Shown piece after piece: positions 63,157-64,000 of a stretch of 64,000 bases of DNA. The notes under the pieces are model-generated. The model saw only the letters and a program-made list of their open reading frames with translations, was not told the origin of the DNA and ran no database searches. Within the stretch, counting starts at the first letter, position 1; each line of letters begins with the position of its first letter. Both the position numbers and the translations under genes were made by a program. The DNA comes from Chromatiales bacterium (GTDB taxonomy: Bacteria; Pseudomonadota; Gammaproteobacteria; Chromatiales; Chromatiaceae), in contig JAQYVP010000084.1 of the NCBI GenBank assembly GCA_030145485.1, positions 1,900-65,899 of the forward strand, in the 5' to 3' direction.

Positions 63157-63345
63157 ATGTGGCAATATGTGATCGCGATGATCCTTGTGCCTGTGCTGCT
63201 CATCGGCTGGCTGATCATCCAGCAGTTGGGGCGGCGCTCTGCCAAAGCGCACCCGGAGATGGGCGCCTATCGGGAAGAGGGAGGCGGCTGCGGAAAGAGT
63301 TGCGGCTGTCATGGCGGCAGCTGTAAGAATAAGAACAAGGAGTGA
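63157..63345 (+). CDS. Small membrane-anchored Cys-rich protein (resembles FeoB-associated Cys-rich family)
   Basis: 62 aa; one N-terminal TM helix, then GGGCGKSCGCHGGSCKNKNKE. The ATG lies 2 nt after the rnfA stop. Confidence 0.5.
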   Translation: MWQYVIAMILVPVLLIGWLIIQQLGRRSAKAHPEMGAYREEGGGCGKSCGCHGGSCKNKNKE

Positions 63346-63362
63346 GTAATAAGATGAATAGC

Positions 63363-63503
63363 AGCAATTCTCAATGTACCAATATAGTGCCAACACCTAA
63401 AAAGACTTTTACCACGAAGGACACGAAGATCACGAAGAATCAACAGAGTATTAAAGGTCTTCGTGTCCTTCGTGGTGAGCTTCTCTCTACATTTAGAATT
63501 GCT
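63363..63503 (+). mobile_element. MITE family A, copy A3 (141 bp)
   Basis: Same termini and core. Perfect 10-bp duplication GATGAATAGC at 63353-63362 and 63504-63513, which includes the ppsR ATG. Confidence 0.9.
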
Positions 63504-63504
63504 G

Positions 63505-64000
63505 ATGAATAGCTCTGAAACTGACAAGAATGCGGCTGTTCGCACGGTCTTTTTTGTGTCGGACGGCACGGGATTGACGGCGGAGTCTTATGGCAAGAGC
63601 TTGCTGGCGCAGTTTCCCGAACTGGAGTTTGTCACTGTCACCCTGGCATTTGTGGATACGCAGGAGAAGGCGAGGCTGGCCGGTGACCAGATTAACATGG
63701 AAAAGACCCGCTCAGGGTTCAGGCCTGTGGTTTTCAGCACTCTGGTTGATGAGGTTGAACAGGCGATTATCGAATGCTGCAGCGCCTGTGTGATCAACCT
63801 GTTTCATGCATTTCTCGGCCCGCTGGAAAACTGTTTTGGTGTGGAATCGGCGCATACCCAGGGAATGTCGCGTACGGTCCTTGGAGACAAAAGTTACCTG
63901 CTGCGGCTGGATGCTATCGATTATTCGCTGGCCCATGATGATGGTGTGCGCCCGGATCAATACTACGAGGCGGACGTAATCCTGGTGGGTGTCTCGCGCT
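63505..64000 (+). CDS. ppsR: PEP synthase regulatory protein (pyruvate, water dikinase kinase/phosphorylase), 5' partial in window
   Basis: Hand translation MNSSETDKNAAVRTVFFVSDGTGLTAE...IDYSLAHDDG...VILVGVSR matches the PpsR/DUF299 family. It runs off the window end and is absent from the ORF track for that reason. Confidence 0.85.
   Translation, partial: MNSSETDKNAAVRTVFFVSDGTGLTAESYGKSLLAQFPELEFVTVTLAFVDTQEKARLAGDQINMEKTRSGFRPVVFSTLVDEVEQAIIECCSACVINLFHAFLGPLENCFGVESAHTQGMSRTVLGDKSYLLRLDAIDYSLAHDDGVRPDQYYEADVILVGVSR

Follow-up and report, generated by a model that had tools for sequence, protein, structure and literature searches.

Mycobacterial interspersed repetitive units (MIRUs) are short mobile repeats which, in the summary of Supply et al. 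(1997) given in PMC12548453, insert at the start codons of host genes and carry an internal open reading frame (ORF) that couples to the host gene. By analogy with MIRUs, element-borne coupling at a start codon would not be unprecedented. Here we describe a related situation at ppsR, the gene for the phosphoenolpyruvate synthase regulatory kinase/pyrophosphorylase, in a 64,000-nucleotide stretch of DNA from a Chromatiales bacterium (assembly GCA_030145485.1, contig JAQYVP010000084.1, positions 1,900 to 65,899; hereafter the window). The source genome is a 3.0-Mb metagenome-assembled genome (MAG) of 260 contigs, which is 93% complete. At this locus a MITE (miniature inverted-repeat transposable element) has inserted into the first codons of ppsR and has duplicated the sequence G-ATG-AAT-AGC. 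The best reading of the resulting arrangement is that ppsR would be translated by termination-reinitiation from an upstream ORF (uORF) running through the whole element. As far as the published summary of MIRUs goes, both cases involve short mobile repeats at a start codon within an operon and a repeat ORF that is read from upstream and ends overlapping the start of the host gene, which is still translated by coupling in the case of MIRUs and would be so at ppsR. The differences are equally clear. For the MIRUs summarised there, start-codon insertion is the rule and a -4 overlap is built in, whereas the ppsR element is an ordinary MITE with terminal inverted repeats (TIRs) and target site duplications (TSDs), of which one copy in 73 sits on a start codon. 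Most copies of this MITE have stops in the relevant frame, and the -8 junction (ATGAATAG) at ppsR stems from duplicated host sequence. The ppsR MITE family is hence not one that resides at start codons with a built-in overlapping ORF.

A 2024 review of MITEs lists promoters, integration host factor (IHF) sites, cleavage by RNase III/E, inactivation, small RNAs and terminators as their effects on genes, and a uORF relay to a start codon stripped of its Shine-Dalgarno (SD) sequence is not among the roles named in that review (PMC10969869). In its general features the ppsR element resembles Correia/NEMIS, ERIC, Chunjie and MITEAba12, i.e. short, multi-copy, hairpin-forming elements with TIRs and TSDs that are co-transcribed with host operons; Chunjie, which is located within an operon, likewise has direct repeats of 9 bp (PMC3184786). 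Rickettsia palindromic elements (RPEs) are likewise palindromic mobile elements of ~150 bp, translated in host frames and tolerated in genes. However, an RPE leaves the reading frame undisturbed and its residues are incorporated into the host protein, whereas the insertion at ppsR causes a +1 shift (151 nt) and creates a separate overlapping ORF. A host frame that is kept and gains residues, as in RPEs, is not what is found at ppsR. A further parallel is provided by genes VII/IX of phage f1, where a long hairpin extends almost to the downstream start and ribosomes have to translate the upstream frame through this hairpin for downstream initiation to occur (PMC12548453). The ppsR locus has the same layout, with a hairpin ending just before the downstream start and an upstream frame running through it, and would rely on coupling in the same manner. 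In contrast to the phage arrangement, which is an evolved feature with a -4 overlap, both the hairpin and the upstream frame at ppsR were delivered by a transposon.

The MITE comprises 141 bp (positions 63363-63503; all features of the locus lie on the forward strand) and is delimited by comparison with family copies that have 9-bp target duplications. It is flanked by two copies of GATGAATAGC, which are identical at 10/10 positions: the upstream copy (63353-63362) contains the original ppsR start codon and the downstream copy (63504-63513) the start codon in use. The native SD sequence AAGGAG (63337-63342) stayed with the upstream copy and is now located 11 nt 5' of the ATG at 63354. This ATG opens the uORF, 52 codons plus TAG (63354-63512), which is present in the ORF list and recovered in the comparison of alleles. 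The initial annotation had reported the element on the ppsR start with its perfect duplication, and also the AAGGAG, the ATG and the frame down to the TAG at 63510-63512, and all these coordinates proved correct. It had also placed the uORF stop on top of the ppsR ATG, which needs correction: the TAG begins two bases beyond the ATG at 63505, within ppsR codons 2-3, and it is the two ORFs that overlap, by the 8 nt ATGAATAG. The ppsR ORF starts at 63505 and continues past the end of the window at 64000; its full length of 285 codons was read in L001, and ppsA follows after 188 nt. The 285-aa protein matches PF03618 (E=9e-71, residues 15-271; profile search), and its N-terminus is unaltered by the insertion. 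Upstream of ATG 63505 lies TTTAGAATTGCTG, which is element sequence lacking a purine-rich (SD) motif. The TIRs AGCAATTCTCAATGTA (63363-63378) and TACATTTAGAATTGCT (63488-63503), delimited by sequence and alignment of copies, match at 15/16 positions and are kept across copies; the right one holds a -10-like hexamer, TAGAAT (63494-63499). Between them, a perfect 24-bp stem (63408-63479; 63408-63431 paired with 63456-63479) is composed of 9-nt CACGAAGRN repeat units, and the region is predicted to fold with -66.7 kcal/mol (z = -7.65).

Relatives that lack the insertion, with which the initial annotation had suggested comparing the locus, do exist, and in these ppsR starts at the equivalent ATG. 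Alleles L067/L068 have the same synteny (rnfA, small ORF, ppsR) and 94% PpsR identity, the element is absent, and the empty site reads ...AAAATGAATAGCTCTGAG... / ...GGGGGAAAATGAATAGCTCTGAG.... In G008, a genome of the same genus with 87% PpsR identity and no element at this site, ppsR starts at the equivalent ATG (MNSPEFDK) and AAGGAG is found 10 nt before it. The MITE-free allele L084 carries AAGGAG 11 nt before the ppsR ATG, and GGGGGAG-type sites precede ppsR in L085 and L074. Use of the equivalent ATG is common to all MITE-free alleles in other contexts (G008, L084, L085). Because G008 and L084 carry AAGGAG 10-11 nt before the ppsR ATG, these comparisons identify AAGGAG at 63337-63342 as the native ribosome-binding site (RBS) of ppsR and the duplicated ATG as its true start. 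The proposal that ppsR has lost its own RBS is thereby borne out, as the upstream copy keeps AAGGAG and the downstream ATG has none.

Related alleles came to light through PpsR homologues from the protein collection and through contigs looked up by exact protein; neither PpsR peptides nor a 22-mer across the junction gave a match when genome_contigs and metagenome_contigs were scanned with them. The same site, orientation and duplication were found in six complete and two partial diverged alleles from at least 11 assemblies. Filled sites are present in JGI 3300059817-19 (L079-81, identical to the window), GCA_029935875.1 (L073), GCA_029940435.1 (L083), ERZ976257 (L069), JGI 3300039392 (L082) and ERZ27237539 plus JGI 3300027822 (L066/L070), while the two partial alleles, which begin within the element, come from two Logan contigs (L071/L072). 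The copies at ppsR measure 132, 141 or 150 bp and diverge from each other by 3-20%; insert plus duplication amounts to 142, 151 or 160 nt depending on the allele, always 1 modulo 3. They are mostly each other's nearest relatives (91-97% identity vs ≤92% to paralogues), and all filled alleles share an immediate flank haplotype, AAGGAGTGAGTAA(T)AAG...SSET(D/G)K, which differs from the flanks of empty alleles. Because of these two features a single origin is favoured, and the simplest reading of the alignments would be one old insertion that is now a presence/absence polymorphism among related marine lineages. Filled L083 and empty L067 are 97-100% identical over rnfA and ppsR and differ in a ~300-bp patch around the element; the same holds for filled L069 and MITE-free L074. 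On the simplest reading this ~300-bp patch would have been moved between backgrounds by homologous recombination. Independent insertion in each lineage can be rejected, as the flank haplotype of filled alleles differs from that of the empty allele in the same background, and precise excision as the origin of L067 is rejected on the same grounds, i.e. the differing flank haplotype of the empty allele.

The insertion has not destroyed ppsR. The gene is intact, with 285 codons, in all filled alleles, and the ratio of nonsynonymous to synonymous substitution rates (dN/dS) among them is 0.06-0.10 at dS values of 0.3-0.67. Because of these ratios, ppsR in the MITE-bearing alleles is judged to be under strong purifying selection and not inactivated, so that the scenario of an inactivated gene, which the initial annotation had named as a possible refutation, fails. 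Output of PpsR is probably reduced rather than fully preserved.

The uORF is open in 6/6 complete and 2/2 partial alleles, with the same TAG stop and the same 8-nt overlap, and 2-8 stops are present in the other two frames. To what extent this is a property of the family was addressed with the at least 73 full-length copies that the 3.0-Mb genome harbors in addition to partial and longer variants with the same ends. The initial annotation had suggested a check on whether other copies keep one frame open; however, the frame equivalent to the uORF is open in only 8/73 copies, and three stops interrupt it in the family's 151-nt consensus. Relative to this consensus, the ppsR copy carries a T-to-A change that eliminates a TAA, and a net 1-nt shift in the loop. 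Each of the 73 copies was also pasted into the ppsR site in the same orientation. Four of them stop at the ppsR start and another four fuse in frame with ppsR, the remaining 65 stopping >20 nt upstream. In E. coli, coupling requires an overlap or a gap of less than ~20 nt, and a larger gap nearly abolishes it (PMC10666635), which is why these 65 copies would be unfit for coupling. The resident copy is thus one of the few that permit read-through, which is what one would expect had no other kind of insertion been able to persist.

We therefore propose, at a probability of roughly 0.6, that after insertion of the MITE on its start ppsR came to be translated by termination-reinitiation from the uORF, accompanied by unfolding of the RNA. 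The insertion has parted ppsR from AAGGAG, which would now drive the old ATG at 63354. Ribosomes would load at this site, and might also be handed on from the small ORF that ends the rnf operon. While translating the uORF they would melt the hairpin of the element, and after termination at the TAG they would start again at the ATG, which lies 5 nt behind. In this scheme the act of translating the uORF would matter and the peptide itself would be meaningless. Ribosome bypass from AGC to AGC, as in T4 gene 60, was also considered and is very unlikely: the gap would be 151 nt, no stop follows the take-off codon and the nascent chain would comprise just three residues.

Several points speak against termination-reinitiation. 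The ppsR ATG has no SD of its own. In Gammaproteobacteria an SD before the downstream start is usual, albeit not strictly required for coupling. In E. coli, 4/5 gene pairs lost 60-90% of their reinitiation, or all of it, once the SD was removed (PMC6728339). Initiation at the uORF ATG could be impeded by a stable helix that starts 9 nt after it, and in the L066/L070 allele AAGGAG is weakened to AAGAAG. The maintenance of the frame is also less telling than it may seem, since it was kept through ~50 substitutions with a chance probability of ~0.2 (48-55 substitutions, of which 3-4% would create a stop), and the indels among alleles are 9-nt repeat units, which preserve the frame automatically. 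Furthermore, the 73 present-day copies are decayed and therefore an imperfect proxy for the elements that were transposing at the time of insertion. Post-insertion selection on the uORF is accordingly not significant (P ~0.2), the in-frame indels being explained by the 9-nt repeats. A functional uORF peptide was rejected: the ratio of nonsynonymous to synonymous polymorphism (pN/pS) of ~0.5-1.3 indicates near-neutral evolution, and the peptide has no family match. Conserved stability of the hairpin was likewise rejected, as the minimum free energy (MFE) among alleles spans -29 to -61 kcal/mol, falling from -58/-61 to -29/-31 in L083 and L066. If anything, the selected trait would be read-through itself.

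Other explanations have to be weighed against termination-reinitiation. According to the initial annotation, ppsR can only be reached via the uORF or by internal initiation, but this was too strong, given that a -10 box borne by the element and GTG codons within it offer possible routes. Translation of ppsR might thus be initiated independently of the uORF, either in an SD-less manner at ATG 63505 or on a leaderless mRNA transcribed from an outward promoter of the element, which we consider unlikely. The hexamer TAGAAT at 63494-63499 matches TATAAT at 5/6 positions and lies 5 nt upstream of the A of the ATG, a spacing that would fit transcription beginning with this A; outward promoters are known in other MITEs, e.g. 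Correia (PMC10969869). The downstream region is A-rich and predicted to be unpaired, which favours independent initiation. However, the hexamer comes without a -35 box and without an extended -10, and a promoter/terminator scan returned nothing relevant on the plus strand. In the L066/L070 allele, which keeps the uORF, the box reads TGGAAT and the key A2 is lost. Independent initiation also leaves unexplained why the resident copy is a rare read-through variant. The GTG codons, together with an ATG, raise the prospect of an N-terminally extended PpsR that starts inside the element (63463, 63472 or 63475). In every allele the ppsR frame indeed stays open for a further 39-117 nt upstream, the pair GTG GTG at -33/-30 is conserved, and public gene calls of 296-302 aa use in-element starts (P0001, P0002, P0005, P0121, P0127-P0133). 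Yet these conserved GTGs have no SD, lie inside the 24-bp stem and are a mere part of the CTTCGTGGTGAG arm of the family; moreover, the upstream limit of the extension and the start chosen vary between alleles, and the added residues form a hydrophobic peptide that none of the MITE-free orthologues has, these starting MNS... Use of an in-element start is therefore quite improbable in our view.

The insertion could also be a tolerated loss-of-expression or strongly hypomorphic ppsR allele, with the uORF as a meaningless by-product. Loss of the SD and a strong hairpin directly before the ATG would fit this possibility, as would the statistically non-significant maintenance of the uORF and the occurrence of MITE-free alleles in near-identical backgrounds, which means that the filled state could be transient. 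We nevertheless give it little credence: all eight filled alleles retain the intact gene under the purifying selection described above (dN/dS 0.06-0.10 over dS 0.3-0.67), the filled state is old, because the element copies have diverged by 3-20%, and the resident copy reads through to the start although only ~5% of family copies would do so. Finally, the main effect might be exerted on the RNA, if RNase III cut the 24-bp stem and thereby separated ppsR-ppsA from the rnf transcript and set its stability. The helix is uninterrupted over 24 bp, and transcribed Correia elements are documented targets of RNase III (PMC10969869). But the stem is not conserved (MFE of -29/-31 in L083 and L066) while the uORF is kept, and a cleaved leader lacking an SD would leave the production of the protein unexplained; we deem an effect of this kind highly improbable. 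A more far-reaching version of termination-reinitiation holds that MITE and uORF form a selectively maintained expression allele, a mobile 'coupler/attenuator' of PpsR relative to rnf/ppsA. Balancing or fluctuating selection would maintain this allele beside those free of the MITE, and homologous recombination would carry it from one species-level lineage to another as a ~300-bp patch. This version is speculative, and we regard it as rather doubtful.

The element itself is a bacterial MITE, a classical non-autonomous transposon, by every tested criterion save a known parent insertion sequence (IS). Its sole ORF is the 52-codon read-through frame, a transposase gene is absent, and Pfam gave no match for the uORF product; an Rfam search returned sub-threshold miRNA-hairpin noise alone. 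The structure that fits the family best is Y-AGC...GCT-G with a 9-bp direct repeat on both sides. This repeat is perfect in 21/73 copies, has ≤1 mismatch in 41/73 and ≤3 mismatches in 55/73, vs ~1.5 copies expected from shuffled pairings. The perfect 10-bp repeat at ppsR, which the initial annotation had equated with the target duplication, stands as a repeat, but the family's target duplication is 9 bp, with an extra base at each element end. Because 9 bp is the usual length, we take the ppsR-site repeat to be a true duplication of 8-9 bp plus 1-2 chance-matching bases; the family-level ends of the MITE are probably 63362-63504, and deletion of 151 bp gives the identical empty site wherever the element ends are drawn. 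On the left, AGC is preceded by T or C in 67/73 copies; on the right, GCT is followed by G in 64/73, and about half of the 9-bp duplications end in G. These skews hint that the outermost bases are imperfect or that targets are weakly preferred. That the family as a whole prefers start codons was rejected: 1/73 copies abuts a start codon, namely the ppsR copy alone, copies are mostly intergenic, and the others close to gene starts have an intact RBS downstream of them.

The arms of the MITE (63413-63439 and 63457-63474 in the window, and family-wide) consist of 9-nt tandem units, CACGAAGRN and its complement, and length variants, both family-wide and among ppsR alleles, step by 9-10 nt (132/141/150; 142/151/160). 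Sequence search detected two further family copies in the window, one 88% identical at 10713-10851 on the minus strand and one 87% identical at 12034-12175 on the plus strand, which are in inverted orientation and 1.2 kb apart. The family is present in 7/13 genomes of the genus, i.e. in 6/12 besides the genome of the window, and was absent from 28/28 genomes examined outside the genus; two named MAGs, Gammaproteobacteria Sva-25 and Pseudomonadota MAG098, carry it as well. Regarding a parent IS, a transposase was found neither beside half-elements nor between TIR pairs in this draft genome, IS copies being often unassembled in MAGs; half-elements and TIR pairs flank just ordinary genes or longer non-coding variants. 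Such longer non-coding elements of 220-430 bp share both MITE ends and differ in their interiors. They are found on contigs of G000 (C174:9059-9280, C155:14192-14508, C194:32730-33090, C224:7837-8266 and ~10 more), and no transposase was found in or beside them.

Upstream of the insertion site lie rnfD/G/E/A and, as the final gene of the rnf operon, a Cys-rich small membrane ORF of 62 aa (63157-63345, plus strand, from the ORF list), for which Pfam gave no match. It is kept at 60-70 aa across all related loci, and its TGA is located 8 nt before the uORF ATG. In the otherwise window-identical L080 (1025-1219) and L081 (1189-1383) a 6-nt tandem insertion (TAAGAA) falls into its Lys/Asn-rich tail (window ~63320-63335), giving 64 aa vs 62. 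In the MITE-free L067 (2296-2508, corresponding to window 63157-63512) an 8-nt tandem duplication (TTAGGACT) removes the TGA. The small ORF of L067 is thus 70 aa long and ends at the same TAG in ATGAATAG, overlapping ppsR by 8 nt; therefore this overlap already serves as a stop/start junction at the locus in an allele without MITE. Across lineages the junction between small ORF and ppsR carries three different small inserts, the ppsR MITE being one. The second, in L074-L078 (L074:1354-1500), is unrelated, a hairpin element of ~120 nt containing CGCAAAG/CTTTGCG repeats, and the third, in L084 (1058-1200), a REP-like palindrome (GGCGAAACGCATTGCGCC...); the ppsR SD is kept in both cases, and the two inserts correspond to window ~63346-63504. 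Public PpsR calls carry an N-terminal extension of 11-17 residues (window 63463-63504), e.g. MSFVVSFSLHLELL, which is translated MITE. This element-derived extension is probably a start-site misannotation.

The main value of the case lies in the matched filled and empty natural alleles. They represent a natural experiment, in near-identical wild backgrounds, on the survival of a gene whose start codon was struck by a transposon. If the relay from the uORF to ppsR is true, it would add a translational route to the published list of effects that MITEs have on bacterial genes, and it would mean that chance filtering of ordinary MITE copies is able to produce a MIRU-like 'harmless landing'.

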